A stretch of DNA of 64,000 bases from Botryllus schlosseri (taxonomy: Eukaryota), in contig CM119376.1 of NCBI GenBank assembly GCA_051294905.1, forward strand, positions 992,001 to 1,056,000, read 5' to 3'. How positions within the stretch are numbered: position 1 is the stretch's first letter; the number at the start of each line of letters is the position of its first letter. The translations under genes were made by a program, and so were the position numbers. The notes under the pieces were generated by a model, which worked only from the letters and a program-made list of their open reading frames with translations, made no database searches and was not told where the DNA came from. Positions 11,901 to 29,302 of the stretch are shown here, piece after piece.

Positions 11901-12537
11901 CATCCATCAACCCATCGTCGGTTACAGTGTAGCTAGTACTGCTTCCAACTTCGGTTCCGTTACCTTGGTCATAATGATTCTCTTCGAGTAATGATGCTAA
12001 AGACAGCTCCTCATTTGCGTTAGACGGGGTTTTGAATTCCGTAGTTACGCCTGGTAATTGTTGGACTTCCTCAATCCATTTCAGCCCTATGATATTAAGT
12101 GGGACTCCTGATCCGGTCACAAATGGAACGGACAGTCCACCAATATCAATCACTACAAAGGAGTCCACTTGGGACGAGCCACCTATTCCAGTCAATTCCA
12201 TGTCTATTGGTTGACGTTTTTCCCAGCTTCGTGGATATTTAGTTATAACGACCTTTTTCATTATCAAATTGGGGATGCTCCCCGTGTCAGCTAGGAATTT
12301 TGTACCAGTTACTGTATCAATTAAATACAACAACTGGCCTCCAAACAATTCCGTAAAATCGGGCTGTAGGGGGTCATCCGGCATATCAAGAAATGTAAAT
12401 AAGGGTAATGATGAGTTATGTACAGTTTTTGTATGTTGAATTATTAAATTGTCTGGGAGCTGATTCACCGGATCAATCAGCACCCCAAGGCGTTTTTTGA
12501 AAGTCGTATACCTTGATTCAGTTCTTCGTCCGTCCAA
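8929..12537 (-). CDS. pol: Pol polyprotein: aspartic protease - insert - RT - RNase H - Tpt1/KptA-like domain; no integrase
   Basis: FLADTGS (12280-12288); RT motifs LDLKKAYFH, MPMGLK, YIDD (10372-10383); Ty3/gypsy-type RNase H TDASD..KEL..TDN..DGLSR (9529-9930); C-terminal ~165 aa with YHCRH, HGHT, LYHMT, HLS motifs. No ATG start; likely expressed by -1 frameshift from gag. Confidence 0.95.
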   Translation of the reverse strand: MDGRRTESRYTTFKKRLGVLIDPVNQLPDNLIIQHTKTVHNSSLPLFTFLDMPDDPLQPDFTELFGGQLLYLIDTVTGTKFLADTGSIPNLIMKKVVITKYPRSWEKRQPIDMELTGIGGSSQVDSFVVIDIGGLSVPFVTGSGVPLNIIGLKWIEEVQQLPGVTTEFKTPSNANEELSLASLLEENHYDQGNGTEVGSSTSYTVTDDGLMDAANQFSVERKMAAGASTGMEITTGASDELKLATNVTQNPWEIIGVETGMPADTVNEDVERGIPAGVKMDLHEKTGPEHSRGCTCPDDNRNPAHSCMATITTDIQSEMSSGENKDLHEKTGPKCLRGCTCPNNLNDSAHSCMTTATVMSTFPKGSIEAAIAGQPDAHPDMSDKESGDFMMHVSPEKGPPAEKESVGVTVGAGTRRDQRHTSKDLALSPPTPKTRSSRISNQPMAGPVTTYVLQKDTHPRVKTELENLCAQSVALAKLPYKPPDLTTPENTIIADDVWKAVYTPFASELEDLRGHLGGPQTMKYKCDIELKDPSTKPFVSGPYNLKGEGQAKALKEAVDNFLDLGVIERGFAEWKLAIFVVPQKMNERQKQEDGWKQAWRVVQNLQPLNAAIKSIEVPPPLVPDVKQLAQGRGVLSLLDLKKAYFHMDVTERSKQYVGIAIKGMHVRWRKMPMGLKTAVALWSANMQECVVKPITEKYQQHMKQVGRTDEENATPMEAYIDDIFLSTKTVEDHLLLLRMVFEQLAKMKLTVSINKCFIGKRRVNLLGATLTGKEIEVQPERIRALRELSPPHNVYELRGWIGALRYISEHIPELSLKLAKFDALTGKVPATQGRVTPVLWTNELLQDFKTAQAALDDAKVLYHLDPNLPIFVETDASDIGFGSIIFQTEKGCKPPFEKVYPIAYYSQKWATPTAKAYDPCTKELKALKDSVEKWQSMLRALPFTIITDNTGVFGLLKRMTDKAKNPSPKPLIQRWLNHLAGFQIKEVVHLSTMQVFTSDGLSRSYWMEMAAGEDDPHVWATIPKKKGVSNRQKRPRPEKIQQMLMYHCRHELCDNSVNGFHPWEDICSIFQKKTGEQMDTDEIQSVMQRCDRAITTEYGMAAAHGHTKGTPPPYCKYEGNEVLYHMTTENNARQIMSAGIERMNRRFIHLSRTPTKKSKRRNVVICMKAANLRNEGLELLQSNVQDVVLCEGPISPTVIQKM
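11479..11697 (-). repeat. In-frame 84-bp direct repeat (period 135 bp) in the protease-RT spacer
   Basis: 11479-11562 and 11614-11697 encode DLHEKTGP..RGCTCP.....AHSCM twice. Confidence 0.9.
12454..12498 (-). promoter_or_regulatory. -1 programmed ribosomal frameshift signal
   Basis: Slippery heptamer A AAA AAC (12492-12498) in the gag frame; pol is in the -1 frame; stem-loop 4-5 nt downstream, UGGGG(U)GCUGAUU / AAUCAGCUCCCA (12454-12487). Confidence 0.85.
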
Positions 12538-15293
12538 TATGGAGCATCATATTGACGCGGCCGATCATGATATTGAGGTTTCGTCCAGGCCACTTGGGTG
12601 TTTCCCCCAGATGGACGTGCAGGTGGTCCATGAGGACCCCATTGATCCCTATCATGCCAGTGGGTTCTGTCTCGGTTTTTTGGCCTGGTATCGTAATAGG
12701 CTTCGCACAAAGCGGTTCTCTGTGTAAACGAGGGTGAACCTTGAGCAGCCAGATATCGATCAAGTCCTTCAATTGTTAGTATGTTATTTCTCGCAAGGAA
12801 CGGTTTCCAGTTTCGTTCTGCAGATTCTTTAACATGAGGGGGTACAGGTCGTGCTCGCCCACGAATTACCCATCCTAATTCCTCATCTCTAGCAAGAACC
12901 TTATCGTTTAGCCACAGTATGAATTTAGCCACGCAATTTCGGGATTGATGTCCCGGTGCCTTACAGTAGTAACAGACGGACAGGGATTGTCCCTGAGTAG
13001 GATTTAGATACAATCCTAGAGGAGCGAAAATATTCGGGTTTCCAAGAAAATTGTATCTCTCACCTTGACTATCCGCAATGTTGCGGGCTTCCTGGCTGCT
13101 GGACGGCGTAATCTGTGAGTTGTCTGCACCCATCCCGGAATCCTGCGTACTCGCCACTCGCGGACTTCGGTTTGAGGTTTCCGGTCCTGGCCTGGCGCGT
13201 GAAGATCTTGTTGTTCTCGTTGGCTGTCCGTCAGGTCTCGATGATGCGTTACGCCCATCCTGTTGGTGTACTGGCCTGGCCCTCGGGCCTTGTCCACGCC
13301 TACCAAATCCATTACCATTCATGATGCGGGTGGGGAATCGATTGTTGCGTGCTTTACGTTGAGGATTCCGACGTTGTAACGGCACCTGGTCTGCATTGGC
13401 AAGTTGACGCGGTGAGGTCCCCCTAGGTGATCCAGGAGGTGTTGCCCCCTCAAAGTTATTCAGTGGTTGTAGGGGCGAGGGTGATTGTACCACCGGCGGT
13501 GGGGTGTCACCAGGTGGAGGAGGAGTGTTGAGCTGACTGTCCTCTCTTCCATGAGTGGGATAACTGTGCACTATTTGTCCTGCAGGTTGAACATTATAAA
13601 TGTGTACTGGCGGCAAGGACGGTTTTGTATCACGTACTTCCTTTGTTTCCTGATACCTGGGGCGCGTCTCTTGCTCGTCCAGAAACTCGGAGTTCCAAAC
13701 AAGTTGTAGTTCCTCCGCAACTTCACGCCATCTTTTATCTTCTTCCCAGCCTCGTAACATCAATCTGAGCGCTTCGGGAAGTCGTTGTCTTAGATTTCGG
13801 AAAAGACGCAATCCATCCGGATTATCATCAATAAAACTATCCATGTCTATTTCTAGTTGTTTCAAAGCGCTATTCAGCAGAGGTAGCGGCTCATCCTCCC
13901 AGCGATAATTCCTGCGGAAATCCCCAATGATTTTTTCATCATTTACCAATCCCTGGGGATTGGATAAGGAAAGAGATCGCATCACCGATTCCCAATCTGC
14001 TTCCCCCGAATTGGTATTAAAAAAATTTCCCAGTTGGGTAGCCTGCTTGTGTCGGCCAGCAGCCCTCAATTTCTTCTGCAGCGCATTAGCCAAAATAACA
14101 TCCACATCCGTATTTCCAGTACCATGGCGTATTCGTCGCATTGAATTCTCCATCCATTTTAGCAATGGCATGTCTCCAGGATCCATCATAAGCTGCAGCA
14201 TTTCTTTTTCTGATTGGATTTTAGTAGATACATTAAGTATTGGGGCTAAAGCACCAGAATTCTTATGTAGCTGTTGCTGCCGTTGTCGCCTAGTCCTTCC
14301 CCCATTCTCTTTTGGAGTGGAGGTAGCGCGAGGTGTATCAGGAGAACGAGAGATATCGGCAGGTTCCTCATCGCTAGAGTCATCCGCAGAATCCTGGGAG
14401 CTGGCACCGCCCCGTAGAGACCTTATATTATCTCTTAATTCCTTGGAAAGATGCTTTAATCGAGTCTGAAAGTCGACCTCACTGTCTTCTGCGGCAGATT
14501 GTTCCTCGCCTGGACTACGAAAGGTTACACGTTGTGAAGCGCCATCCGCTTTTATACGAGATTCTGTCGCCGAATTGCGGCGTTCTGGCCAACCTTGATA
14601 TCCCCTATAGTTACTCAAGGAACTTTTTGCAGGTTTCGCCCTTGTTCCCATCGTTGTTGGGTTACCATCTTTTTGTTTGCGGCGCGCACCACTGCCAATA
14701 TGGAAGCATGATGTCGTCCCCATTCGAGAGTCTGACAACGAGGACGAATCAGAACGTGGTAGCTTAGGATAGACGGCCGTCACAGTATGACAATCCAGAC
14801 CCTTACGGACCGTCATTGTTGGTCCTGGTTGTACGTCATCCGACGGCTGCTCAGCGAGCGGGACGTAAGCCGGAGGATCATGTTCTGGTGCATTTGGAGT
14901 TACTGTCAAAACGGGAGATTGGACGCTCTCTCGCGTAGCCTGAGCATGCGACCTTCCGAGCTCGAACTCTGACGTAAGGATGTCATTCAGCACGTCGGTG
15001 GAGACCTTCCCGCTAACTCTTGTTGTGGCATCACAAACAGCTTTGAGGTCTGCTTGAGCTTTTCGAACCTCTTTCTTTGCCTTTTCTAACCCTTTCATGG
15101 TTTCCGGCAGAGCTGTCTTTACCTCTTTCAATAGCTCTGTTTGTTCAGCCACGTCCTTAGCCAGTTGTCTTTCTTGTCGCCGGACATCTTCATGGCGTTT
15201 TTGTGTAGCTTTAAGCAAGGTAATCCCTTGTTTGAGTTCGTCTGTTGCTTCTGATGGCTTTTTCCTTTTTAATGCTTTCAACATCCTACGCAT
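12477..15293 (-). CDS. gag: Gag-like protein (938 aa)
   Basis: N-terminal coiled coil, PPAY late-domain-type motif (14865-14876), helical central region, Pro- and Arg-rich segments, CCHC knuckle CYYCKAPGHQSRNC (12933-12974); overlaps pol at the frameshift. Confidence 0.88.
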   Translation of the reverse strand: MRRMLKALKRKKPSEATDELKQGITLLKATQKRHEDVRRQERQLAKDVAEQTELLKEVKTALPETMKGLEKAKKEVRKAQADLKAVCDATTRVSGKVSTDVLNDILTSEFELGRSHAQATRESVQSPVLTVTPNAPEHDPPAYVPLAEQPSDDVQPGPTMTVRKGLDCHTVTAVYPKLPRSDSSSLSDSRMGTTSCFHIGSGARRKQKDGNPTTMGTRAKPAKSSLSNYRGYQGWPERRNSATESRIKADGASQRVTFRSPGEEQSAAEDSEVDFQTRLKHLSKELRDNIRSLRGGASSQDSADDSSDEEPADISRSPDTPRATSTPKENGGRTRRQRQQQLHKNSGALAPILNVSTKIQSEKEMLQLMMDPGDMPLLKWMENSMRRIRHGTGNTDVDVILANALQKKLRAAGRHKQATQLGNFFNTNSGEADWESVMRSLSLSNPQGLVNDEKIIGDFRRNYRWEDEPLPLLNSALKQLEIDMDSFIDDNPDGLRLFRNLRQRLPEALRLMLRGWEEDKRWREVAEELQLVWNSEFLDEQETRPRYQETKEVRDTKPSLPPVHIYNVQPAGQIVHSYPTHGREDSQLNTPPPPGDTPPPVVQSPSPLQPLNNFEGATPPGSPRGTSPRQLANADQVPLQRRNPQRKARNNRFPTRIMNGNGFGRRGQGPRARPVHQQDGRNASSRPDGQPTRTTRSSRARPGPETSNRSPRVASTQDSGMGADNSQITPSSSQEARNIADSQGERYNFLGNPNIFAPLGLYLNPTQGQSLSVCYYCKAPGHQSRNCVAKFILWLNDKVLARDEELGWVIRGRARPVPPHVKESAERNWKPFLARNNILTIEGLDRYLAAQGSPSFTQRTALCEAYYDTRPKNRDRTHWHDRDQWGPHGPPARPSGGNTQVAWTKPQYHDRPRQYDAPYWTDEELNQGIRLSKNALGC

Positions 15294-15301
15294 AGTCCTT
15301 C

Positions 15302-15571
15302 CTATTGGCTGGAGAAAGTACTGTTGACAGAAGTTATTAGATCAGGTGAAGATATATTAAAATGGATTGTAGATCCTTGCGGCGTAATCGTGGGAGGAAC
15401 GTAAGCAGTAGATGCGCTGCTGTTGGATCCCAAAAATACGTTCAATAGATTAGAAAGCGCTCCAGGCGATACGTGCAGATAGATTGCTGCCAATATAATC
15501 AGGAGAGATATAGAAGATGAAAGCAAGGATACGACAAGTACAAGTTTTACGATGGTCGTCTTAGAAAGCAT
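15302..15571 (-). CDS. ORF0: 89-aa predicted single-pass membrane protein between PBS and gag
   Basis: ATG 30 nt after the PBS, stop 8 nt before the gag ATG; hydrophobic IVKLVLVVSLLSSSISLLIILAAIYL. Confidence 0.6.
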   Translation of the reverse strand: MLSKTTIVKLVLVVSLLSSSISLLIILAAIYLHVSPGALSNLLNVFLGSNSSASTAYVPPTITPQGSTIHFNISSPDLITSVNSTFSSQ

Positions 15572-15600: not shown

Positions 15601-15619
15601 ATCCCCGTACTGGCCACCA
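15601..15619 (-). promoter_or_regulatory. Primer-binding site complementary to tRNA-Ile(AAU) 3' end
   Basis: Minus strand TGGTGGCCAGTACGGGGAT is complementary to ...AUCCCCGUACUGGCCACCA, the metazoan tRNA-Ile(AAU) 3' end as I recall it, including the post-transcriptional CCA. Confidence 0.88.
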
Positions 15620-16352
15620 ATTTTGTTTTTAAAGTGCAGCTCCACAACGATTGTTGTGCGAGTAGTCCACACTTGTTCGGGTTACTTCCTAGTAAAGCGT
15701 TGCCTTTCGTTTGCTTTAGTATCCTGACGACGTCTGTAAATGGTGATTGGAGCAACAACAGTGGTAGGATTGTTTCTTCTCAAGTTGACAATGACCCTGG
15801 GGTCCAGAATTTTAATCTACCTTTATCTACTGATAATCTAGAAGCTTAATACAACCAAATACTCCAATCAATTAATCATGTAGACGGAAATGAAGTAACT
15901 CTATGCAAAACTTGGTTAAATTGGCATACACATCATTCATCAATTATAACACAAGGCATGGTTTAACCTATACATCATCATACATGATTAATAAACATTT
16001 TCAATACTCCAAGGTTTGTTTACGCGTATAATTCATGCGACGGCCTGTCCTGCCGTAAATATCAATTACATTTCAAATATTTTGTAACTCCATTCAGCAT
16101 CATAATCCTCAATATTATCGTGATCATAATATTTCAAAGTAACATATCAACATTAAGGACGTCATGTCTTCAGTGCAATCAAAATCACTATGATCCTACT
16201 AATCAGACCGCATGATACTACCCTTAACTAAGATGCCACTTAATACAGGCATTGCTGATTGTTCAAACAGTTTTTAGTGTTCATTATTTAGTTAATTTAA
16301 TGGTATTGTTGTTTAAGATTTTATAAGATTTTATATTGTTTTTCAATAATTA

Positions 16353-16757: not shown

Positions 16758-17207
16758 TCATTGAACTAGGACATCTATAGTATCCTCAGGGTAAAAGGGT
16801 TCCGTAGATTCGGCTTGTTCTTTCACCCATTCATCCGTTATCAAATTTTCCATAGGATGCATTCGAGCCATATAGTTGAACCACAAAAGTTTAGCCCTTT
16901 CATAATTTCCATAGGCCATTTCTTTTATCATTTTGTGGTTTTCTAATATTCCTGGGTAGTCAATAACAAAGGGCTTTTCATCGGAAAGGGTTTCGTTAAC
17001 CCGTTTGCAAAAACATTTCAATCCAAGTTTGATATATTTGGGTGGAGTCTTTGACCACTCGTACCATCTATGAGAGGGGAGTATTCTCGCTTCATATCGC
17101 TCTTTGAATAGCCAAAAATAAAATATCAAATCTTGTTCCGCTACATTAGATCCAACTATTCTGGTGACATCAACATCACCATTATCATTTATCACCGCGT
17201 TATTCAT
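16758..17207 (-). CDS. Unknown protein, family A subtype 2 (149 aa)
   Basis: Shares F..F...YE, RW..W..T.P, Y..AK.LW....RMHP..E.W with 19120-19515. Confidence 0.8.
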   Translation of the reverse strand: MNNAVINDNGDVDVTRIVGSNVAEQDLIFYFWLFKERYEARILPSHRWYEWSKTPPKYIKLGLKCFCKRVNETLSDEKPFVIDYPGILENHKMIKEMAYGNYERAKLLWFNYMARMHPMENLITDEWVKEQAESTEPFYPEDTIDVLVQ

Positions 17208-17370
17208 ACTGAATTTTCTGAAAGAAATTAATCATCCAGGTAAGGGTCTATTTAGTCATGCAAACGGAAATGAATTAACTCAATGTAATACTTAATCAAA
17301 TTGGCATACATGTCATACATAATTAATAGACATTTAATTTAGCAAACAATAAAATGTACAATTTATGCAT

Positions 17371-17829
17371 TCATTGTTCATAATTATCACATCCATTACA
17401 TTTCATTTTATGTATAAGTATAGCAGCTCTCACATCAGAGGGAAAAGTATCATAAAAGAGTTTATCCGTGGTGTAAATACAAAATCCAGTTCTATCAGAA
17501 CAAGGCATTCTTTCCAACACCCATCCTTCGGGTATCACATCTGAGGCAGGATGCAATCCAACACAGAAGACGAACCAACAAAATTTAGCATGTTCATAAT
17601 TTTCAAACAATATCATGCGGGCGATGGATAAATGCTTTTTGTATAGCGCATCAAACAGTTTGTCGGATACTCTCAGATTGCAAATCCTCAAGTAAGGTGT
17701 CATAAATATCTCCAGTTCATCCCGTGTTGTTGCAGCCCACTTGCCAAAGTCTTTGTGTTCATATTTCTTTTCAAAGGAATCAAAGAAAACGTCAAGTTCA
17801 TGCTTTGCTCTAGCAATTTTATCCCCCAT
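17371..17829 (-). CDS. Unknown protein, family A subtype 1 (152 aa)
   Basis: Shares KLFD.LY..H..IAR, W F...LHPA...PE...ER.P with 19521-19976. Confidence 0.8.
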   Translation of the reverse strand: MGDKIARAKHELDVFFDSFEKKYEHKDFGKWAATTRDELEIFMTPYLRICNLRVSDKLFDALYKKHLSIARMILFENYEHAKFCWFVFCVGLHPASDVIPEGWVLERMPCSDRTGFCIYTTDKLFYDTFPSDVRAAILIHKMKCNGCDNYEQ

Positions 17830-17966
17830 ATTTTCTTAATATAGAGAATTTTATATTGATTATTAGACCAGAACTTTCCTTAATAACATTTCCTACACTC
17901 ATATGAGTATAACAACACTTCTAGAGTATTCAATAATTGTGATAAGCATACTATATACATAACAAT

Positions 17967-18461
17967 TTACTGTGCATACATATCAGTCCATTTTCGTGCC
18001 GTCTTCTGATAACTATCATAATCATCCCGATACAGTCTGGCGCTTTCAACATCCATTGGATCTTCTGGGTTAGGGGAAGCCAGCAATGACGAAATTGAGA
18101 CCAACACCTTGCCCATCGTTAAAGCAGGTGACCATTCATTTGCAAGAATGTCAATACATATGGTACCCTTACGGCTTATATTCGGATGAAAAATTTTGGT
18201 CTCAAATTTGATCTTCGGAGGCTTGAATGGATATTCCGTTGGAAATTCGATTCTAAGGAGAAATGTCCCTTTTTCATATGGTGTTTTTGAGGGTCCGCGC
18301 AAAAGTGCTTGCCAAATATAGATATCTGACTCGTCCATCGGCCCTGCTTGCAAAATGACAGGATTTGTTTGAATTTCTTGATCGATCTTTCGCCGTTCAA
18401 CATGTAACCTATGTCTTGCCATTCGGTGTAGATTAATATTATCCAACAAGACTTGATACAC
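17967..18461 (-). CDS. UBE2D: Intronless E2 ubiquitin-conjugating enzyme, UBE2D/Ubc4-5-like
   Basis: GP..TPYE.G.F, YPFKPPKI.F.TKIFHPNI, catalytic Cys in ICIDIL, WSPALT, SLLASPNPEDP. Real start probably MARHRL. Confidence 0.93.
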   Translation of the reverse strand: MYQVLLDNINLHRMARHRLHVERRKIDQEIQTNPVILQAGPMDESDIYIWQALLRGPSKTPYEKGTFLLRIEFPTEYPFKPPKIKFETKIFHPNISRKGTICIDILANEWSPALTMGKVLVSISSLLASPNPEDPMDVESARLYRDDYDSYQKTARKWTDMYAQ

Positions 18462-18483
18462 ACAGAAAGAAAAAAAAATATTA

Positions 18484-19008
18484 TTAATTCAGTCGTTTAT
18501 CCATAGTATACATGGCCCGTGAAAAACCGGCAATAGTTTTGCTAGTAATGTTCCAATCTTCATCAACATTAGCTATAGCCAACACATATCGTAGAAATAC
18601 ATACAAGTAGTATGCAGGGCTCTCTCCAAAGTTTTCTTCCACAATTTGCTCCAGTACTCTTTTGGCGCATTCCAATTGTTCCGCCACCTCATGGTCCCGG
18701 TATAGCCAGACAAGAAAATCTTTCAATACATACTCCATGTCATTGGCTGTCAACTTCGGAAAGTTTTCTATTCTTTCTTTTATTCGTTCATGTACAACTC
18801 CCATCTTTAGCCAAGCAACTCTGCTGTCAGGTATCGTAGGGTATAGACACGGTCTGAACTTGTTCCGATTCAATTCCTTCTTCTGTGGGTCTTTAGGCAC
18901 ATACTCATACTTTTCATGATTAACTTCCAACATGCCACAGTCAAAGATCAAATAAATTATTAATGTCTTAAAATTCTTACACAAAAAAACCCAAACATTA
19001 TTAAACAT
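18484..19008 (-). CDS. Unknown helical protein (149-174 aa)
   Basis: Open frame packed between neighbours in the same orientation; no recognised motif. Confidence 0.65.
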   Translation of the reverse strand: MFNNVWVFLCKNFKTLIIYLIFDCGMLEVNHEKYEYVPKDPQKKELNRNKFRPCLYPTIPDSRVAWLKMGVVHERIKERIENFPKLTANDMEYVLKDFLVWLYRDHEVAEQLECAKRVLEQIVEENFGESPAYYLYVFLRYVLAIANVDEDWNITSKTIAGFSRAMYTMDKRLN

Positions 19009-19119
19009 TCAACGAATCTTAATCAGCAAACCAACTTAATTACACACATAAAAGTTTTTAATTCTAGTTGTTATATTAGATATAGTGGAAAATCTGATGC
19101 AGTATATGTATCATTTCAG

Positions 19120-19515
19120 TTAATCATCTTTCAAACATCCTTTTATCCATTGTTCTGAAAAGCTCTCCTTCAGGGGATGCATACGAACAATATGTTGGTA
19201 CCAAAGAAATTTGGCTTCCTTATAGTCTCCCAGTGTAATAATTGCAATCCTATTATGTTCCTTGATAGCAGCATGATACCCCAGAGCCTTGCCTTGCGGA
19301 GATAATGCACTCCCATAAACTTTGTCAACATACAGCGTCAGCATTCCAACAATGTCATTGGGTCTTGTCATAGCCCATCTTTGCCATCTGTCGGAAATTT
19401 CCACATCTTCTTCATAATATTTACAGAACATGTCAAAATAATATTTCAAGTCGCACACTGCGGATTCATATTCCGTTTGCAATAATTCCTGGTTACTTAT
19501 GGTTCTTCGAGACAT
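19120..19515 (-). CDS. Unknown protein, family A subtype 2 (131 aa)
   Basis: Paralog of 16758-17207. Confidence 0.8.
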   Translation of the reverse strand: MSRRTISNQELLQTEYESAVCDLKYYFDMFCKYYEEDVEISDRWQRWAMTRPNDIVGMLTLYVDKVYGSALSPQGKALGYHAAIKEHNRIAIITLGDYKEAKFLWYQHIVRMHPLKESFSEQWIKGCLKDD

Positions 19516-19520
19516 TCCTC

Positions 19521-19976
19521 TTAATCGCGTAATATAACGATTTTCGAAAAAGCGTCTTCTAAAATTGGAACAGCAACAGTTTCAAATTCTCGAGCATTCA
19601 GAAGTAATGTTGCAGAATCTTTTAATTCCATTTGTGGTAATCTTTCATCCAGAAATTCTTCTGGTAGATATTTATGAGCCGGATGTAATTTTAGAACAAG
19701 TCCAAACCATGTATATTGGGCCAGATCAAAATCTTTTGTAACAAAAACGCGAGCAATATCACTATGTGCGTCATAAAGTTTATCAAAAAGCTTTTCTGTC
19801 ACATTCGCAAAACAATGATGAAGGTATTTCTTTATTAATTGTTTGAATTTTTCCTTTGGGGTATTTTTCCATATCTCAAAATTTTGATGATGGTATTCCT
19901 GTTCAAATTCATCATAGTATTCATTAATTTGTTTCTTGGCTAGCGTAATTTCCCAATTCTCTAATACTCTAGTCAT
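19521..19976 (-). CDS. Unknown protein, family A subtype 1 (151 aa)
   Basis: Paralog of 17371-17829. Confidence 0.8.
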   Translation of the reverse strand: MTRVLENWEITLAKKQINEYYDEFEQEYHHQNFEIWKNTPKEKFKQLIKKYLHHCFANVTEKLFDKLYDAHSDIARVFVTKDFDLAQYTWFGLVLKLHPAHKYLPEEFLDERLPQMELKDSATLLLNAREFETVAVPILEDAFSKIVILRD

Positions 19977-20122
19977 CTTAATACAGAATAAAATACTTTA
20001 AAATCGTATGTTCAATTTTACGAATAATTGATTCATACACGCAAAAGTAACTAGTAACATTATGCATCATACATATGTATCAAGAACATTCATGCCACAA
20101 AATAATAGTCCTGCCTGCTCCA

Positions 20123-21817
20123 TCAAGCTCTATACACCTTTATCTTTTCAAGTATTGTTTCACCACAAATGTTGCATCTTTCGGTATTTGTTGCACATTT
20201 TTCACAACTACATAAATGTCCACAAGGTATGAAAGTAATTTCACTTTTGTTTCTCTTGCAATTTTTGCAAAGCACACTCTCTTGTATTTCTTTCAAACTT
20301 TGCGCGATTTCATCCACCGACATTGTTTCTGCAACTGCTGCTTCTTTCGTTTCTTTGTTGTTGTTCACTTCGTGATTATTTTCAGATATGCTATCGCCTT
20401 GTTGTTGTGTTGTTTTCGTTGGACTGGCGGTAATTGTATTTACTGTCTCCAGTAAGTCCTGAATTATATCACCAGTAGAGAAATGATCATTAGTCTGTCT
20501 ATTTATGGTTCCTTCTATTTGATCTCTCGTAAATCCCATGTCTTCCAGTTGCATCCTGTTTATGTATTGTCTAGATAACCTTGGTCGATTATGGTTCCTT
20601 CGTATCTCCTCTCGTGGTGCATCAAGACATATTGCATTCCTTATCGATGGTCGATTGAGATTGGGATGTTCATCTCTTAGTCGTAAAACGAAATCAATAC
20701 CTTTCATTTGCAAAACATATTCACAACCAGGAAACCACTTTGCATGCTCTGTCCACGGCTCATCATTGTAGTTCCAATTTTGTAATCCTCCGTTGCAGTA
20801 AAAGCATTTCGCCCTGTCCGAATCCCCTAGATAATACATACCCGCTTTAGCCAATTGTTCCGTTGTTGCGAGGATCCTGGGCCATTTTTCATTAAACGAA
20901 GATATTCTTTGCTGTAACGTTGTCATATGCAAATTTATCGGGTAAAGGCAAGGGAATCTTTCCACCAACTGGAGTTGTTCTTCTGGCGATGGATCCGGAG
21001 GTTCTCCCCTATTAGTAGTTAACCTTTCAATTTTTATTTTAAGTTCATTATCTGCCTGATTTCTCTCGGAGTCTGTCAAGGGCATATTTCCTGCATACTC
21101 GTTATTTGCCATTCTGCATTTTGTAAAATGTCTTTTATGTTGTTCAAGGACATTATCAGTGGGTGCCCAATTTCTCAGTACTCCTGAACATGAAAAACAT
21201 TGCGCTCTGTCAAGATTTCCCAGGTAAAAAAATCCCTGTTTTGCCAATTCCCCTACCAAGTATGGAGTAGGATAGGAAGGCCATTTGTCAAAGGTTCTTC
21301 TTCTCTCTAGTTCACTTCTCAAATTTGCTGATCGCAATGAAGTCTCATGTTCTTGGTCACAAATGTTCGCAAACACGGTTTGCGGTAAGGGACACTTTTC
21401 CTCTTTGATAGTCGGTCTTTGCACATTCCGATTAGTTTGCTGACTTCTTGTAGTAAGGTTAAGGTGGCACCTCATTTGTTCAAAAAGGAGCCTCCCTGAG
21501 CAGTTTGAAATAGGCAAGTTATAACCATGTTGTATGGTCACCATGTCACAAGTAGATTTATGCCACTTGTCATCAAAAGGATCGTCTCCAGTGACCCATT
21601 TTTCCACAGATACTCCACAGCAGTAACATCTTACTCTATCTTGAAATCCTGTCCAATAGAAACCCGCAGCGGCTAGATAGCTCGGTATCACAGGAGTTTC
21701 TTTCGAAAAATGTTTGAACGTTGCAAGTCTGTAATGCTCAACCCGGTGATCTCCAGGTGGAATATAAACGCAATTATGTCCAGGAGGATCACGATCTCTT
21801 TTCATCAGAATGCCCAT
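20123..21817 (-). CDS. iap: Intronless inhibitor of apoptosis: 3 BIR + UBA-like + C-terminal RING
   Basis: Three BIRs (R..TF...LA..GFY.G..DR..C..C....W...D....H....C), LEDMGF UBA-like motif, RING CKNC...PCGH...CEKC...CNIC ending KVYRA. Confidence 0.95.
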   Translation of the reverse strand: MGILMKRDRDPPGHNCVYIPPGDHRVEHYRLATFKHFSKETPVIPSYLAAAGFYWTGFQDRVRCYCCGVSVEKWVTGDDPFDDKWHKSTCDMVTIQHGYNLPISNCSGRLLFEQMRCHLNLTTRSQQTNRNVQRPTIKEEKCPLPQTVFANICDQEHETSLRSANLRSELERRRTFDKWPSYPTPYLVGELAKQGFFYLGNLDRAQCFSCSGVLRNWAPTDNVLEQHKRHFTKCRMANNEYAGNMPLTDSERNQADNELKIKIERLTTNRGEPPDPSPEEQLQLVERFPCLYPINLHMTTLQQRISSFNEKWPRILATTEQLAKAGMYYLGDSDRAKCFYCNGGLQNWNYNDEPWTEHAKWFPGCEYVLQMKGIDFVLRLRDEHPNLNRPSIRNAICLDAPREEIRRNHNRPRLSRQYINRMQLEDMGFTRDQIEGTINRQTNDHFSTGDIIQDLLETVNTITASPTKTTQQQGDSISENNHEVNNNKETKEAAVAETMSVDEIAQSLKEIQESVLCKNCKRNKSEITFIPCGHLCSCEKCATNTERCNICGETILEKIKVYRA

Positions 21818-22057
21818 AGTTTCAATTCGGTCATTTCTCGGTGTAATTGCTTTCGATGGAACAGGCGTTCAATAATACAGGTCAAAATGTCAAGATATAA
21901 CCATACCAATACAACATTCTAGTAATAATACATAAACATTCTGTTAAAAAAAAATATCATTATATAAGATTTCTCGAGGTTCCAAATTAGCATTGGTTTG
22001 ATAAATTCCATGGATTGGGTGTAAAGTCATTATTTAATCGTCAATATGTGACAACAG

Positions 22058-22750
22058 TTAATGGAGATGTATGTCCAAAATATAGGAATTTTCCAGATAT
22101 TGATTCATTGACTGGGTTTCCTTATCTACTTTCTTCGAGTATATGTATATATATGCATCCATAACGGAGGTATCAGAACTCAGCAACATATAACCTTTTA
22201 CTCCTAGGTTGGTTTGGCTGTACCAAGTCCATTTGCAATTCGCATCTGTAACATAAGCCAGACTATTTGCACATACTAACAATCTTGTATGGCCCATTAC
22301 TACTCCTCGTATCACTTCATATATTACTCGTCTCATACATTGGGGAGGTATTCTTCGGAAAACTCCCATCAAGGTTTCCGTAATTATAGTCCATGTATCG
22401 TCATCGGGTCGTATCGTCTGTTTACTCCATACTATGAGTCGTTGTCTTGAGGAATCTTTCACAATGGCAGAATCTTGGGAGTCGTCAGAGTCCGTATTAC
22501 TAGAAATTTCGTCCTCCGACGTTTCTCCATGGGGTTTTCTGTCGCCACATGGAAGTTGTCTTTTGTACCAATTATGTTCTTGTTCAAAAAATTTTTTTAA
22601 CATATCCATCAGCAACTTCAGACATCCAGTATTTTTTCGCACGTCGATTTTATCTAGTTGATTCATCAATTCACAAAAAATAGCAGTGTTATGATCCTGT
22701 ACTTCAGATAGATACATTTTATCCCTGTGAATATAACAATAATGTGCCAT
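22058..22750 (-). CDS. Unknown protein, family B (230 aa)
   Basis: RRVIYEVIRGVVM and W..Q.NLGVKGY shared with 25742-26365. Confidence 0.78.
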   Translation of the reverse strand: MAHYCYIHRDKMYLSEVQDHNTAIFCELMNQLDKIDVRKNTGCLKLLMDMLKKFFEQEHNWYKRQLPCGDRKPHGETSEDEISSNTDSDDSQDSAIVKDSSRQRLIVWSKQTIRPDDDTWTIITETLMGVFRRIPPQCMRRVIYEVIRGVVMGHTRLLVCANSLAYVTDANCKWTWYSQTNLGVKGYMLLSSDTSVMDAYIYIYSKKVDKETQSMNQYLENSYILDIHLH

Positions 22751-22970
22751 AACAATAAAAGATCCTGATTCAAGATTTCAATGCATCAAATCTCGATATT
22801 GGATATCATACAACATACATGTAATACATTCACTCACTATGATACAACAATAATAGAAACATTTCATAGGTTTTCTAAACATGTAGATTATCATACATGC
22901 CTCTATTGCTTCCCTAAAGATTCAAATCACTCATCTCTGATGATATTGCACATAGTGACCAACATTGTTT

Positions 22971-23918
22971 TCAATGTTCCAATGTCCTAAAGTTAGGATC
23001 AAGAGCAATTATCTCTAAAAATAGTTGAAACCTTTCCTCCAAGGCCACCCTTCTTTTCCAGAGCCACTCCTGTAAGTAATGAGGAATAAGTGATCTTGAT
23101 ACCCCATTCAGCCTTCTAATAGCAGCTTTAAAAAAATTCCAAGACACCTCGATCAATTGTGTATTTATGCCTTCTGTGGTGACAAATTCGCGATCATGAT
23201 TAACTATTGAATGTTTATAATTCATTCCCAGGCTTTCCAACTTGCGGTAACTGGCAAATGAATCAGTCCATATAGTGGATCCCTCTTTTACGTGTTTCAT
23301 AATTATTTCTGATAATACAGAGGTTTTTCTCCCTTCTTCAGGTACCAATTCTGCAAACATTTCTCGCGTTTTCATATCTATTCCAGCCAAAACCCAGCGT
23401 TGGCGTATTATTCTTCCACGATTAAATTTTCTTTTGGCCACAAACGTCTCATCAATTTGAATTACATGTGATTTACCTTGTGATATTCCCCCTATTAGTG
23501 TACCTCTTCTTTCCATCTCCCCAGAGCATATCTTACGAAGTTTCTTGGTCCAATTCACCATTGTTCTCTTGCTGACGTGTGCTTCAAAAGCTATTTGTCG
23601 TTGAGATACATCTATGGTCCAAAGATAAATCATCATTACAAGTTGGGTGAGTCTTATTTTACTTCCCTCAAATAGCGATCTTTTCCTTATGGACGTGGTA
23701 GTTCGGCACTTTGAAACCGGACACCTCCATCTATATCCATCCATAGTTCTTTTGCATTTTTCTTCATTCATCTGTTGTCCACAATTAAAACATGTTGCCT
23801 TTTGAACAAGGAGTTGCCGTGATCGCAGAAACTTTATACATTTTCGTTCACTTGATATTATACCACATCGAGCAAGATTGAATAGATTTTTTCTTTTTCT
23901 GGATTCTTTAGTCTTCAT
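22971..23918 (-). CDS. IS1595/ISXO2/Merlin-family DDE transposase, copy 2 (315 aa)
   Basis: Zn ribbon CFNC..WRCPVSKC, HTH region, IQIDET, WTDSFASY, NH, TQLIEVSW, YLQEWLWKR; catalytic D, D, E present. Confidence 0.92.
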   Translation of the reverse strand: MKTKESRKRKNLFNLARCGIISSERKCIKFLRSRQLLVQKATCFNCGQQMNEEKCKRTMDGYRWRCPVSKCRTTTSIRKRSLFEGSKIRLTQLVMMIYLWTIDVSQRQIAFEAHVSKRTMVNWTKKLRKICSGEMERRGTLIGGISQGKSHVIQIDETFVAKRKFNRGRIIRQRWVLAGIDMKTREMFAELVPEEGRKTSVLSEIIMKHVKEGSTIWTDSFASYRKLESLGMNYKHSIVNHDREFVTTEGINTQLIEVSWNFFKAAIRRLNGVSRSLIPHYLQEWLWKRRVALEERFQLFLEIIALDPNFRTLEH

Positions 23919-23986
23919 ATTTATTTAAAACTTTATTGTCTTTTCAAAAGTAGTTTCTGTATATACAAACATTGGAAAGTTAAATT

Positions 23987-24541
23987 TCATGCAGGCACTT
24001 TCAAAGTCATAAATTGACAATCGGCTTCTTTTAATGAAATTCCCTGCGTCTTTGCCCATGCGTATATCTGAACTTCCGGAAAGATTATCCACATTATGAA
24101 ATCTCTTTCAGAATCTCCCTTTTTTAGAAATTCCCTCATTTCCGGATTTACTTTTTTTAAAATTGTTACCCAATTTATGCAGATTTCTGCAAAAGCCATC
24201 TGTATAGGTTTTTCAGGGTAAATGCTTCCTGTATAAGTTTCTTCCCACTCATTTTCAACCAGATGTTTCCCAGGCCAATGATTATTACCCGTAGTAAAAC
24301 CATACTTTTGCTTCCAATATTGCAGCCGTGGATTTAATTCGTCGTACATTATGTCACATAAGTGATCCGTTAATGTATATGTTGTCAACAGAAACTTCAG
24401 CGACTTTAATCCTTTATCTATTAGTGTTTCTTTTTGGGGTATCCATATCAAATGTTGTTTTTCCGGATCATCACAACGCAATCCCAAGCACATTTTGATA
24501 CTTTTAGTAATATTTTTACCGTATTCTAATATATTAAACAT
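23987..24541 (-). CDS. Unknown protein, family C (184 aa)
   Basis: NPRLQYWKQ and ERDFIMWIIFPE shared with 27744-28616. Confidence 0.75.
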   Translation of the reverse strand: MFNILEYGKNITKSIKMCLGLRCDDPEKQHLIWIPQKETLIDKGLKSLKFLLTTYTLTDHLCDIMYDELNPRLQYWKQKYGFTTGNNHWPGKHLVENEWEETYTGSIYPEKPIQMAFAEICINWVTILKKVNPEMREFLKKGDSERDFIMWIIFPEVQIYAWAKTQGISLKEADCQFMTLKVPA

Positions 24542-24605
24542 CTTATTATTAATTGAACAGGAAAATACTGAATCAATACCTCAAGATTCCACATTTTCTT
24601 TATAT

Positions 24606-25655
24606 TTACATTAGTTCAATAGTGACTAGCCACACAATAACGGCAAATGTACCTTTTGAATGTATAGTTACATAATGGGATAAACTTTTCATCTCATCAT
24701 AATATAATCTCGATTGTTTGCGCACATGGGGTTTTTTGGTAAACGTTCCATTATTATTTCTTTTCAATTTTAAAACTTCCAGCCTCGGTAATTTTTTTAG
24801 TAGATCATCACTAAGAAATTGGACGTGATTATAACTAAGATCAATAGTATGCAGATATTTGAACGATATATTGGAAGAAAGAGAGAAAAACTTCAAGTTG
24901 TTACTATACAATGTTAATCTCTCTAAATTACATAGTGATTTAAGCACTGTCATTTCAAATGCAATTAGTCCATTTTCGTCCATGTGTAATGTTTCTAATT
25001 TTCTCAATCCTCTGAAGGCCCCATCTTCTATAACTTTTATGGCGTTCCTTGATAAATCCAGTATCCTGAGACGGCGCAAGTGAACAAATGTTCCATTCTT
25101 CAATCTTTTTATCTCATTATTGTCCAGATATAGCTTTTGCAGGTTCTCCAGACTGGCAAATATCGATTCTTCTATCTCTGCCAGCAAATTACTGCTTAAG
25201 TACAAACTTTCTAGTTGATGTAATCCTGAAAAACTTTCCTTTTCAATTCGTGTGATGTAGTTTCGCCTCAAGTTTATCTCCCTGAGTTTTTCATTTTTGC
25301 AGAAGGCTCCTCTTGATATTGTTTGGATTTTATTCCAACCACAATACAACACCTCTACGTCTTTATATTTTTCCAATTGTTCTTTGGTTATTTCCCGTAG
25401 ACAGCTGTCGTTGATGAATATCTTTACTGTGTTCCGACAAGATTTTGCCAGGTATATCTTGTCAGGATCCGGAATCCTTGTATAACTCGAATGGTCGCAC
25501 CAAAGTACCAAATTGCTTCCTTGCATGCATTCCGGGTATAACATGGTTCGTCTTTCATTAATCGTACATTTCTTTTGTTCTATTGTTTCCGGATAAATAG
25601 CATAACACATGCCCAGCCATAATACTAGTAGTTCCACTCGATTCATTTTACTCAT
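24606..25655 (-). CDS. Secreted or anchored leucine-rich-repeat protein (349 aa)
   Basis: Signal peptide, Cys-capped N-terminus, 9-10 24-aa LxxLxLxxNxIxxIxxxxF repeats, hydrophobic C-terminus; intronless. Confidence 0.9.
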   Translation of the reverse strand: MSKMNRVELLVLWLGMCYAIYPETIEQKKCTINERRTMLYPECMQGSNLVLWCDHSSYTRIPDPDKIYLAKSCRNTVKIFINDSCLREITKEQLEKYKDVEVLYCGWNKIQTISRGAFCKNEKLREINLRRNYITRIEKESFSGLHQLESLYLSSNLLAEIEESIFASLENLQKLYLDNNEIKRLKNGTFVHLRRLRILDLSRNAIKVIEDGAFRGLRKLETLHMDENGLIAFEMTVLKSLCNLERLTLYSNNLKFFSLSSNISFKYLHTIDLSYNHVQFLSDDLLKKLPRLEVLKLKRNNNGTFTKKPHVRKQSRLYYDEMKSLSHYVTIHSKGTFAVIVWLVTIELM

Positions 25656-25741
25656 GAATTAGATAACCCACTTTGTTACTCTATACCTTCGAAAAAGTGT
25701 CCTTTGTAAGTCAAAATCTTATTTACATTCGTTGTCATTAC

Positions 25742-26365
25742 TCATGATTGTTCCGGTATTATAGAGTCAATGTTCACACTTTCCCCTTCGTAGGGGTAAG
25801 GATGTATTTCTATACGTCTTATCCTTTTTGTTCGCCAATGTATTGAACTTGAATAGCCTTTTATGCCCAAATTATTCTGACAATTCCATTGTTCCATATG
25901 TGGCGGATCTTTACAAATTTCTCTCTCCTGGTACACGTCCTTTGTTATATTAGTGTTTGTAAGTTTCATCACCAGTCCTCTAATTAATTCATACAACATG
26001 ACTCTTCTTCCCAAAGAGGTGTATTCCTTTGCTCTTATTTCAAATATCTCTTCTACCACATGATTGAATTTATTAAAATTTTCTTCGGTTATTTCCTCAT
26101 CTAGTGCTGCCTCTTCTAGGCCATTGTCTGTTTGTTTAACCCAATCAACTCGGTCCGTAAGCAATTCCCATATTCTTTCCTTTAACTGGTATCTCTCATA
26201 CTCGCTGTCATATTCTTTAAGATTCAATAGGTCCAACTCGTCATATACATCGTACAAAAGACACCAATTTGATGGATCGTAACCTTCAATATAATCAAAA
26301 TCTAACATTCTTTTTTCAAACAAAATAGCAATTTCGCACAATTTACCATTTTCAGGATATAACAA
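25742..26365 (-). CDS. Unknown protein, family B (207 aa)
   Basis: RRVMLYELIRGLVM and W..Q.NLGIKGY shared with 22058-22750. Start uncertain. Confidence 0.78.
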   Translation of the reverse strand: MLYPENGKLCEIAILFEKRMLDFDYIEGYDPSNWCLLYDVYDELDLLNLKEYDSEYERYQLKERIWELLTDRVDWVKQTDNGLEEAALDEEITEENFNKFNHVVEEIFEIRAKEYTSLGRRVMLYELIRGLVMKLTNTNITKDVYQEREICKDPPHMEQWNCQNNLGIKGYSSSIHWRTKRIRRIEIHPYPYEGESVNIDSIIPEQS

Positions 26366-27743
26366 TTCTCAAGACTTATATAATTACTTTTACTTTTCAC
26401 TCATAACTTATCAAGTATACTCCATTTATCAATTCATTAATCACCCAATACTTATTAGGCAATAAATCTCTCCCCCCCACAAGGGCAATATAATCATTTT
26501 GTAATTTTTTATTTTCTGGTTTTTATTTATATAATTTTTTTCTCATTAAGATTTTATCTCGTATATAGTTTTTATCATTCGGTTTTGGTAATAATTTTAT
26601 CAATTTTTATGATCTATAAACATAATTAGACATTTTATTTTTTTGAAGATTTTTTTAGTGGGGAAAGTTACACAACATGTCAATTGAAACATTATTAAAA
26701 AGTAATATTACTCATCATCCCTGCCTTCCCTTCCATGAAAAATATTTAGACACAAGTATCTCTGAATGACAAACTACTCAATTCAAGGGTTATTTATACA
26801 GAGTTGTTGATAACAAGTTATTACACAACTGTGTCTCATAGAGACCATCAGAGGAAGGGTGCCATGAGACAGAGATGTGAGTAATTTTCAAAATGTTATT
26901 TTACAAAACTATTACATAATCAAATATTGGATAAAATACTAGAGGTTGAGTCCATTATTACGCATGTTATGTACAGTGCAATAAAGAATTTTCATAATCT
27001 TAAAAATATTATAATAATCAGCAATAACTTAAATAGCAGCAAATTGGTATGAGGCTCATACAAGGAGATTTGGCAGAGCGACAATTTTGGGTGAAACGGA
27101 AAAAATTACGCTCACGTCAGTATTTAAAAAATATAATTCGATTAGCATAACATTTAAGTATAAGCACGAGGCGATTTGTGATAGTATAGGTGGTCTGGGG
27201 CCATTACAGACTAAATTTCAACACGAAAATTGCAGCCAAAAATACATACATAACATTTAATATTATGGGAGACAAACACCGTACAATTCTTCATAATTTA
27301 CAATAACAAGTTCCTCTCGAATTTAAAAAATTTTTGCAATAAAGGTAGGTCGATCTTGCATTCAAGTACTCAAGTTCTCATAGTCCCCGGGATGTCATTC
27401 TAGGGGAGGTGATAGCGGGAACAATCCCAGCGATTGATCAATGTATCGGAATCTTTTAATAAAAAGGGAAACTGTATTAATAACTCTGAGTAAATATATA
27501 TCGTAAAATACAGGTATATAGTTTCCACTTTTGCTAATCTCAAGTTTCGCTATACCCGGCTTCTATACTTTTTCCGTTAAGTTTGACCTTTGGTAGTGGT
27601 GCCGAATTGATAAGTTGTCCTAAACCACCACCGGTCAGCCCTAAATAATTTAGTTATCATGGCTTGTCTAATAGGCTAGCCCTAAAAGTCCAGATCAATC
27701 AAGACAACTTCTAGATCAGACTAATAGTAGCTTTATTTTCAAA

Positions 27744-28616
27744 TCAGCCCATATTACCACCAGAGACAGCATGGGGTCCGTCTACACTGGGTCTCCGTAA
27801 AACTATCATTTGGGTCGGAGCCTCTAGTTTGTTTGGAAACCTACTGTCTCTACTGGTTGAAGACTCAGTATCAAACAACGATGTAGTTTCCGAATTGGTA
27901 TTTTTAGCTAATTGTTTGTCTCCCTCTTTTTTTAACGAGTTTTCAAAGATTGATTCCGACACTTGGTCAACCGGTAGAACAAAAACGCCTCCCACATAAC
28001 CAAACGTGCTCGTGGACCCGTATGTAAATCTCCATTGTTCTAGATTTCCCCCAAATAGGAATTCAAATTCTGCGTCCATCCGACATCTCGTAAAACAAAA
28101 TGTTCGCATGTTTTTTGCCCCCCGATATTGTTGCAACAGGAGAGCTATGGCGGTTATTATCGCTTCTGGATATAACACATAAAGCAATATATGTCCTTGA
28201 TCTCTTTCGGTGTTTTGAGCTAGTCCTCTGTGCATGCTACAAGCCTCTTTCAAATAGTTATGGCATAATGTCATAAGTTCCAAAATCTGTCCAGTATTCT
28301 TGAAATACGGTTTTACGTGCCTCATAAGATAACATTGTTTACATTCACCGACCCCTACCGGGTGAAAAGGCTTTCCTATTTTTATCCAGTCCTCTTTGGT
28401 GTACATACATTGTTGCCAATATTGTACCCTTGGATTGTCCCGCTCACAAGTGCCGAACAAGAGGCTCATCAAACGATCCCGAACCGGCGCAGTTTTTATG
28501 GTTTCCATTACCATCTGCTGCCTTTGCGTAAGATCGAACTGCATTGCCCACTCGTAGACAACCTTGTGATCCGTATTAGGGTCGCACAATAGCCCGTAGC
28601 ACATTTCTTTCTTCAA
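27744..28616 (-). CDS. Unknown protein, family C (290 aa)
   Basis: NPRVQYWQQ and ERDQGHILLYVLYPE shared with 23987-24541; Ser/Thr-rich tail. Confidence 0.78.
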   Translation of the reverse strand: MKKEMCYGLLCDPNTDHKVVYEWAMQFDLTQRQQMVMETIKTAPVRDRLMSLLFGTCERDNPRVQYWQQCMYTKEDWIKIGKPFHPVGVGECKQCYLMRHVKPYFKNTGQILELMTLCHNYLKEACSMHRGLAQNTERDQGHILLYVLYPEAIITAIALLLQQYRGAKNMRTFCFTRCRMDAEFEFLFGGNLEQWRFTYGSTSTFGYVGGVFVLPVDQVSESIFENSLKKEGDKQLAKNTNSETTSLFDTESSTSRDSRFPNKLEAPTQMIVLRRPSVDGPHAVSGGNMG

Positions 28617-28789
28617 TTAGTTCACTATTTATAACTCTAGAATACAGAATGTTTCCTCCTTTATTCATACAACCCTCAGTAAATTGGTTCATATTGTAAA
28701 TCAATATGAAACAGAGAAAATACATTGGTTAAATTTTTAATCATACAACCTTACCAGTCATGTGAGTCAAACAATATGCTAGAATTTAT

Positions 28790-29302
28790 CTAACCATCAT
28801 CATGATATGATGTTGTAGGTTGAATTTGAGCGGTAGGTGGCTGTTGCCGAAACATGATACTGCCAAAAGATGTATACGTCCCATCTGACATCACATTGCT
28901 ATTATGCGGCAAGTCGTGGCTCGTTGAAGGTGGCGTCAGTAAGGGCGTCAAGAAAGGACTACTTGTTGATGTTGAGGAGCTGGTCTCTATTCTTCTATTC
29001 TGTTTGTTTGGGGCAGATTTTCTTTGTGAATATGGTTTTACTTTTGCTACCTCTCGATTTTTGACGTGTTTTCTACGATAGTCATTTCGCCATGGCCACT
29101 CTTTAACTTTTTCATTGTTTGCTCCCATCCCTTCGAAGAAGGACTCCGCATAATGTCTAGTTTGATTCTTAATGTCCTCGAAAAAATCATTCCATCTTTG
29201 TAATCTCTCTGTTTTTTTCACGCCTCGAAGTTCCTCATACCATAGTTCGATATTTTCAATAGATAGCTCCCATAATTGTTCTTTAGTTATTGAGGCAGAC
29301 AT
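28790..29302 (-). CDS. Unknown protein (170 aa), helical N-half, basic and Ser/Pro-rich C-half
   Basis: ATG-started ORF co-oriented with the array; no recognised domain. Confidence 0.65.
   Translation of the reverse strand: MSASITKEQLWELSIENIELWYEELRGVKKTERLQRWNDFFEDIKNQTRHYAESFFEGMGANNEKVKEWPWRNDYRRKHVKNREVAKVKPYSQRKSAPNKQNRRIETSSSTSTSSPFLTPLLTPPSTSHDLPHNSNVMSDGTYTSFGSIMFRQQPPTAQIQPTTSYHDDG

Follow-up and report, generated by a model that had tools for sequence, protein, structure and literature searches.

Reverse-transcribing elements are known to enter genomes by means of an rve integrase, a tyrosine recombinase, or target-primed reverse transcription, and pararetroviruses have, to our knowledge, no integration enzyme. 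Caulimoviridae encode a movement protein, are non-enveloped, infect plants, package gapped open-circular DNA, and have genomes of ~7–10 kb. DIRS/Ngaro are reverse-transcribing elements thought to integrate circular DNA with a non-integrase enzyme; they possess a tyrosine recombinase, generate no target-site duplication (TSD), and rebuild their ends from internal complementary or split repeats. Merlin/IS1595-IS1016 transposons are characterized by a D-D-E transposase, short imperfect inverted ends starting with GG, and TSDs of 8–9 bp.

The integration mechanism of endogenous pararetroviruses is described as unknown in the accessible text of PMC10175614, which presents Teratorn, a piggyBac–herpesvirus fusion, as the first case of a DNA virus fused with a cut-and-paste transposon and mentions, in the same portion, no Merlin or caulimovirid fusion case. 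Teratorn resembles the element reported here in that a virus genome appears to have been given integration by a cut-and-paste transposase, and the excision of a Teratorn circle is, in that text, proposed but not demonstrated. It differs in being a DNA-replicating herpesvirus of 180 kb with a piggyBac enzyme, whereas the present element is reverse-transcribing and has a Merlin/IS1595 enzyme. The largest retroelements given in the accessible parts of PMC6431247 and PMC10175614 are Burro, Ogre, and Terminons (25–40 kb); Burro likewise has BIR domains and an env-like region, but Burro and Ogre differ in their LTRs and integrase and Terminons in being Penelope-like.

The window analyzed here, that is, the whole stretch of 64,000 nucleotides, contains an element of 39,979 bp (8656–48634), delimited by searching both ends in the host genome, where ~30–40 copies stop at identical bases. 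Judging from its sequence, we propose with a probability of about 0.78 that it is an enveloped retrovirus- or pararetrovirus-like element, likely replicating via circular DNA and likely inserted by its own Merlin transposase, so that its linear map is a circular permutation. Like Caulimoviridae and endogenous pararetroviruses, it has a tRNA-primed reverse transcriptase (RT)–RNase H (RH) without an integrase, a single internal primer-binding site (PBS), no LTR, and a circular gene map, the circularity being read from permuted natural copies; the inserts of its relative, family B, also resemble fragments of endogenous pararetroviruses. Unlike Caulimoviridae, elements of this kind reside in an animal host, measure 17–44 kb, and have env-like genes, their own transposase with precise ends and TSDs, and an apparent spliced leader at the RNA end; a profile scan of 22 ORFs found no movement-protein family. 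With Retroviridae and Metaviridae (Ty3/Gypsy with env) it shares the order gag–pol–(integrating enzyme)–env on the circle, contiguous in families G and F1, together with a CA-like fold, a CCHC knuckle, a PBS, and an apparent plus-strand stop at A58, but it differs from them in lacking an LTR and an rve integrase, in its inverted ends with an 8-bp TSD, in a Tpt1-like domain at the pol end, and in a separate RT clade. PF12762 transposases, short imperfect inverted ends starting with GG, and 8–9-bp TSDs are shared with Merlin/IS1595-IS1016 transposons, from which the size of 40 kb, retroviral machinery under selection, and signs of an RNA intermediate set the element apart as other than DNA-only. 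With DIRS/Ngaro it would share the integration of circular DNA by a non-integrase enzyme; membership in that group was rejected, as there is no tyrosine recombinase, TSDs are present, and no internal 12-mer copy of the termini occurs. The element is caulimovirid-like in replication and Merlin-like in insertion, and it is a member of neither group, nor of LTR elements or DIRS.

Ends, gene content, and selection

The following boundary features were defined.

8648..8655, no strand: left TSD, 8 bp, identical to the 8 bp at 48635–48642 and present once at the empty paralogous site L092
8656..8678, no strand: pol-side terminal inverted repeat, 17 of 23 letters matching the other end; 49 matches in the host genome
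8813..8868, minus strand: 56-bp subterminal motif with a palindrome, behind pol in the window and behind the second glycoprotein gene in family G
31000..41200, no strand: ORF-poor 10-kb stretch, part of the element, common in pieces to 9/9 candidate copies scored
48612..48634, no strand: transposase-side terminal inverted repeat; 46 matches in the host genome
48635..48642, no strand: right TSD, 8 bp, pairing with the left one

The 49 pol-side and 46 transposase-side ends in the host genome yielded 46 paired copies of 4.7–81 kb, among which 20 are full-size (37–40.5 kb). Short inverted repeats with TSDs of 8–9 bp, the terminal hallmark of Merlin/IS1595, were found in 28 of the 30 family-A copies examined, in 4/4 of family D, and in 3/3 of family G. 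A segmental duplication of the window flank (L092, G000:C6:1169500-1172500; 99.7% identity) lacks the element and has the target once, which indicates that the insertion in the window is recent; the empty site of another copy, on C16, was seen in all four sequencing runs examined. As the initial annotation had stated, there is no repeated LTR: self-BLAST of the element gave no LTR-like repeat, and long terminal direct repeats were also absent from a repeat search. PF00665 (rve integrase) was not detected in pol or the other ORFs scanned, and Rfam gave no match within the element. A host repeat (74% identity, inverted) lies at 29528–30154 inside the element and at 5772–6415 in the left flank, and is likely a secondary insertion; to the right of the element, an unrelated DNA transposon carries a pogo/Tigger-like DDE_1 transposase (49541–51573, plus strand).

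All genes of the element lie on the minus strand, in the order transposase 1, env-like ORF, second glycoprotein, 10-kb ORF-poor stretch, accessory genes, PBS, ORF0, gag, and pol, which agrees with the gene order first claimed for the coding strand.

47396..48345, minus strand: transposase 1 (IS1595/Merlin); ATG-started ORF at 47396–48235, PF12762, conserved frame running upstream to a splice-acceptor-like site ending at 48346
44750..47266, minus strand: env-like ORF, 838 aa, with a basic cleavage site, hydrophobic peptide, long helices, and membrane anchor predicted from the sequence
41264..44662, minus strand: second glycoprotein-like ORF, 1132 aa, paralogous to the surface part of env, with which it cross-matches in tblastn
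22971..23918, minus strand: transposase 2, IS1595/Merlin-type; PF12762, and NF033547 above cut-off
16758..30918, minus strand: accessory genes, including a ubiquitin-conjugating E2 (17967–18422), an IAP (20123–21817), an LRR protein (24606–25655), and ~10 unnamed ORFs
15302..15571, minus strand: ORF0, 89 aa, between PBS and gag, with a hydrophobic N-terminus; 75–98% identity among copies
12477..15293, minus strand: gag, with a capsid-like helical domain (13644–14228) and a CCHC knuckle (zf-CCHC just under cut-off)
8929..12384, minus strand: pol, protease–RT–RH–Tpt1/KptA-like domain, without integrase (Pfam RVT_1, RT_RNaseH, PTS_2-RNA)
8929..9498, minus strand: Tpt1/KptA-like domain at the pol end; residues R36, H37, R79, and R132, counted within this stretch, do not vary among 5 aligned relatives

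Both transposases match PF12762 above cut-off, as expected of IS1595-type DDE enzymes, and D-D-E motifs are present in the PF12762 transposases; the ATG-started part of transposase 1 scored 66 bits against 75 with NF033547. Its frame is conserved for at least 31 codons upstream of the ATG (48236–48346), with an acceptor-like site in the same phase in families A, E, F1, and G, and a first exon might lie across the end junction. Transposase 2 is present in G5 and F1 and absent from G1 and G4, and is thus dispensable in relatives. The env assignment is weak, combining the sequence motifs with a weak Atlas score (0.90), the features being nearest to those of class I fusogens; a structure model (pLDDT 36, one homologue only) was too poor for a fold search. 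In the second glycoprotein-like ORF, a signal-like N-terminus and a C-terminal hydrophobic stretch were recognized by eye.

The gag and pol products are of retrovirus type, with a capsid fold and zinc knuckle in gag and protease, RT, and RH in pol, the capsid match being moderate. Thus, the gag core model (pLDDT 84) gave retro-type capsids as 21 of its 30 top fold matches (best Z 6.3), while Foldseek matches of the model were not significant and the Atlas yielded no usable gag match. The protease motif in pol was recognized by eye, and PF00077 was found in the family-B homologue. Among solved structures, the best match of pol was 8r0s (E 8.6e-18; entry title 'Enzymatic polyprotein'), with foamy and Ty3 structures ranking lower. 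We take this entry to be a caulimovirus RT; a possible caulimovirid affinity is that of the PDB ranking, and the RT tree described below contained no named caulimovirid. The PF01885 domain that closes pol does likewise in P0001, P0027, P0029, and family B, and its four invariant residues match the Tpt1/KptA catalytic tetrad; the domain may modify RNA or DNA ends. In relatives, an endonuclease/phosphatase or a dUTPase follows RH, replacing or adding to the Tpt1-like domain.

Median dN/dS against the window copy was 0.036 for RT-RH (27 copies, 4 of them with stops; dS up to 0.44), showing strong purifying selection, and was 0.099 for transposase 1, 0.196 for gag, and 0.245 for the Tpt1-like domain. 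The RT is therefore not dead cargo. These values bear on the simplest alternative, namely, that the element is a cut-and-paste Merlin transposon with a captured retroviral cargo that moves only as DNA. The inverted ends, the TSDs, the intact and selected transposase, and the empty sites all conform to it, as does the multiplication of short derivatives that have no RT; a cargo RT would, however, have decayed. Moreover, recombination among copies is strong: four-gamete incompatibility climbs from 0.28 to 0.64 with distance (721 sites), and the copies are mosaics, which also speaks against movement as DNA only.

Primer-binding site, spliced leader, and transcript ends

Two features on the accessory side of ORF0 record how the copies were made.

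15601..15619, minus strand: PBS for tRNA-Ile(AAT), with a fixed core at 15603–15619 and a hypervariable border at 15601–15602, corresponding to tRNA positions 58–59
15845..15868, minus strand: DNA copy of the host 24-nt spliced leader, the inferred 5' border of R; in 42/45 copies, and the 5' end of thousands of host cDNA reads

The internal tRNA-Ile PBS proposed in the initial annotation was borne out, since the minus strand at 15601–15619 complements the 3'-terminal 19 nt of host tRNA-Ile(AAT), counting its CCA. This pattern occurs 10 times in the host genome and 0 times read backwards, and all six loci inspected are tRNA-Ile(AAT) genes; by simple arithmetic, a given 19-mer is expected ~5e-7 times by chance in the window. 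The PBS lies 6,945 bp from the left element end and 33,015 bp from the right, upstream of gag as in LTR retrotransposons and retroviruses. Its length of 19 nt holds for the window but not for the family, in which the fixed PBS has 17–18 nt and no more than 11 of 45 copies show the 19-nt match. In 43 of the 45, the 17-nt core is intact, whereas the two letters that follow, which pair with tRNA nucleotides 59 and 58, are AA in 27, AT in 11, CA in 4, AC in 2, and AG in 1, with frequent small indels. On a tree of the 45 copies built without the border columns, the four windows over this border were the top 4 of 735 four-letter windows, with 25–27 changes (median 5). Between close copies (flank distance ≤3%), the border differs in 39 of 50 pairs, which are not independent of one another; in the same pairs, 445 other windows differ in 7.9% on average (maximum 52%), and positions after 10 other homopolymer runs in 0–30%.

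According to PMC8599865, the plus strand of retroviruses stops short of m1A58, after 18 nt of the primer have been copied, and PMC4787781 reports misincorporation by RT at m1A. Hypervariability at tRNA positions 58/59 would follow from a plus strand that halts on the primer in every round. From this sequence pattern, copies appear to have been re-made by tRNA-primed reverse transcription with a second strand transfer at the PBS. The border scar further implies that the minus strand left the PBS toward the accessory side and returned from the gag side, and so must cross both ends.

The homologous place is occupied by a PBS for host tRNA-Thr(AGT) in the sister families E, F1, G, and H; of 30 loci with the tRNA-Thr pattern examined, 3 are tRNA genes and 27 element loci. 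The border was invariant among the loci retrieved of one Thr-type subfamily, for which the search pattern itself fixed 18 letters. A short family without RT-RH and transposase 1 retains the ends, TSDs, leader, and PBS, and its border is variable too. DNA copying can neither focus changes at the tRNA A58 border nor switch the PBS between two host tRNAs, and the variable border in the short family is equally at odds with it, so that movement solely as DNA, already largely refuted, is highly improbable. An explanation of the short-family deletions as spliced-out introns was rejected, as the junction sequences do not fit.

The spliced-leader copy, identical to the 'Chordata 1' leader in the accessible part of PMC3795323, lies 225 nt upstream of the PBS in the window, 218–270 nt upstream in 42 of 45 copies, and 218–243 nt upstream in 26 of 27 Thr-type loci. 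Its identity to that leader suggests a tunicate as the host. When RNA reads were mapped to a short natural copy, 5,298 of them had the template-switch adapter directly behind this stretch and unrelated sequence on the other side. The leader borders are the next most variable spots after the PBS border (24 and 20 changes); a G directly precedes the leader in 31 of 42 copies, and a partial second leader stands behind the first in some relatives. In the simplest reading, the genomic RNA would be trans-spliced and strong-stop DNA would terminate within the leader, and R would start with the leader copy that the element itself carries near the RNA 3' end. In run X22, 410 coding-strand reads lie just upstream of the leader; they would fit an RNA 3' end there, provided that the library is of 3' type.

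Several minor features were noted in and around this region. A 77-bp repeat at 15872–15948, upstream of the leader, recurs at 17252–17328 between accessory genes, and a 53-bp unit at 16007–16059 has 3–4 repeats in family G; either may be a promoter or processing signal. A hairpin-like short motif at ~15795–15810 (minus strand), downstream of the leader by ~40 nt, is shared by families A, C, D, E, and F and is a possible RNA signal. The host genome contains 236 exact leader copies; of the 30 loci read, the majority are part of this element class or of other repeats. Two loci (L157 and L158), in which the leader is followed by a splice-donor-like sequence, may be leader-RNA genes or LINE heads.

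Two further candidate signals concern the ends of the linear form.

48410..48423, minus strand: weak polypurine-tract candidate, intact in 23/23 full-type right ends read
8769..8774, minus strand: AATAAA behind pol, a possible poly(A) signal of inserted copies, present in the window

The polypurine tract, taken at first as part of the retroviral layout, is not well supported: besides being kept in the 23 full-type ends, it is degenerate in 8/8 short-family ends, nothing equivalent exists in families G and F1, and it was rejected as a general cis signal. The AATAAA, likewise pointed out earlier, is real in the window but not a family feature: no more than 17 of 33 copies have one within their final 300 nt. 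Some single-cell reads were placed close to the pol end; given these and the AATAAA in about half of the copies, many transcripts may stop before the junction. No end-to-end joint was present among the joints listed when reads and contigs of four runs were compared with an 8-kb natural copy holding both ends, a listing dominated by flanking repeats.

These observations are also compatible with two RNAs made from an inserted linear copy, one of leader–PBS–gag–pol and the other of transposase–env–accessory–leader, between which template jumps at the leader and PBS would yield a linear DNA trimmed by the transposase, with no routine circle. Such a scheme accounts equally well for the PBS and leader scars and for the selection on RT, fits the reads near the pol end and near the leader as well as the absence of a junction among the joints listed and the host-genome ends, and requires no 40-kb RNA. 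It does require a second priming event beyond the pol-side end, and there is no internal copy of either terminus of the kind seen in DIRS. We consider it unlikely, and the relatives of the element weigh further on it.

Relatives opened at other points of the gene circle

Families C, D, and E (63%, 59%, and 93% RT-RH identity, respectively) open between pol and transposase like the window. Family G (92% identity) is ordered accessory–leader–PBS–gag–pol–transposase–env–glycoprotein 2, with ~130 bp and no element end between pol and transposase; it opens instead behind the second glycoprotein. Its three copies measure 38,267, 38,383, and 44,155 bp, each with an 8-bp TSD, and their 3' end resembles the pol-side end of the window over 33 nt at 79%, in addition to the 56-bp motif, which is retained in this 3'-terminal region at 88–93% identity in 3/3 copies. 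F1 (88% identity) shares this contiguous order, its pol and transposase being 45 bp apart; its upstream end and TSD were searched for and not found. In the RT tree, G and F1 are placed separately among the pol-opened families. Two opening points among families mean that an end-joined form is needed to get from either order to the other.

Family B (46% RT-RH identity) has the same pol domains and no transposase. All five of its loci read pol–ORF–env–accessory–(leader)–gag and are broken at different points in gag or pol; one exceeds one unit length, amid inversions. No PBS was found in family B, and its candidate primer site is not tRNA-derived (0 tRNA genes in 8 loci). The circular permutation originally suggested is thus corroborated by two kinds of relatives, that is, G and F1, in which the transposase and env follow pol directly, and family B, opened at five points of the gene circle. 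Without some end-joined form, neither the moved break point in G and F1 nor the permuted family-B inserts are explained by two RNAs from a linear copy.

An end-joined template need not be a free circle, since head-to-tail chromosomal tandems or concatemers would give the same permuted, junction-spanning RNA, and one family-B locus is indeed longer than a unit. Among the 49 left and 46 right ends in the host genome, however, opposite ends are always more than 2 kb apart, that is, no head-to-tail pair exists, and nearly every copy has its own TSD; a tandem source therefore seems very improbable.

Relatives with the same pol domains at 35–47% identity were found in public assemblies and form one clade in the RT tree; the metagenome and viral contigs scanned contained none. 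The element-type RTs form a clade of their own (SH-aLRT 99), apart from integrase-bearing hits, in this quick, midpoint-rooted tree of 54 rows with no named references (18 from this genome and 36 search hits covering at least 330 residues, further hits being left out).

Proposed replication and insertion cycle

Returning to the circular reading, we propose the following cycle. An end-joined circle would give rise to an RNA of more than unit length, with its start upstream of the PBS and the host leader added by trans-splicing. The tRNA would prime the minus strand, of which ~250 nt would be copied up to the leader, before a jump to the RNA 3' end, where R, the element's own leader copy, matches. 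The minus strand would then proceed round via the accessory genes, env, transposase, joined ends, pol, and gag, and the plus strand, halting on the tRNA at m1A58, would pair with the PBS and thereby close a gapped circle. Finally, the transposase would cleave the joined ends and insert the linear form, and an inserted copy would have to be excised or copied out as a circle before it could take part in the cycle again. The free circle, the single 40-kb RNA, and cleavage of the abutted ends by the transposase are still inferred. An unspliced RNA of 40 kb with many acceptors counts against the cycle, being at the size limit of 30–40 kb reported for RNA-based elements (accessible part of PMC6431247), and no evidence for IS1595/Merlin enzymes acting on circles was found in the literature, including the accessible part of PMC7835479.

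In its fullest form, which we hold to be fairly probable, the proposal is that of a new reverse-transcribing animal virus. It would be enveloped, with a circular pararetrovirus-type genome of 17–44 kb or more and a terminal redundancy starting with the host trans-spliced leader; a captured Merlin transposase and movable inverted ends would stand in for integrase and LTRs, one genome would preserve both the ancestral state without transposase (family B) and two opening points, and the inserted copies would be latent proviruses returning as circles. In this lineage, the known modes of genome entry appear to be joined by another, in which a DNA transposase acts on a circular reverse transcript, and the transition is visible in one genome: without transposase, with transposase, and with ends moved. 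It would represent an integrase-less, tRNA-primed, enveloped animal RT virus with the largest genomes of that group, in which the host spliced leader is apparently used as a strand-transfer sequence. No published description of such an element or route was found in the literature search, outside which lay Repbase and most subscription papers and supplements. With the scar at the PBS border, any such element can be tested for an RNA intermediate simply from its sequence.

Two single-copy deletion derivatives were also observed. In one (L090:9456), window position 15623 is joined to 40792, the deletion ending 4 nt from the PBS; in the other (L077), 16063 is joined to ~48203, the deletion ending just upstream of the leader. 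Both deletions are what misdirected first strand transfers would give.
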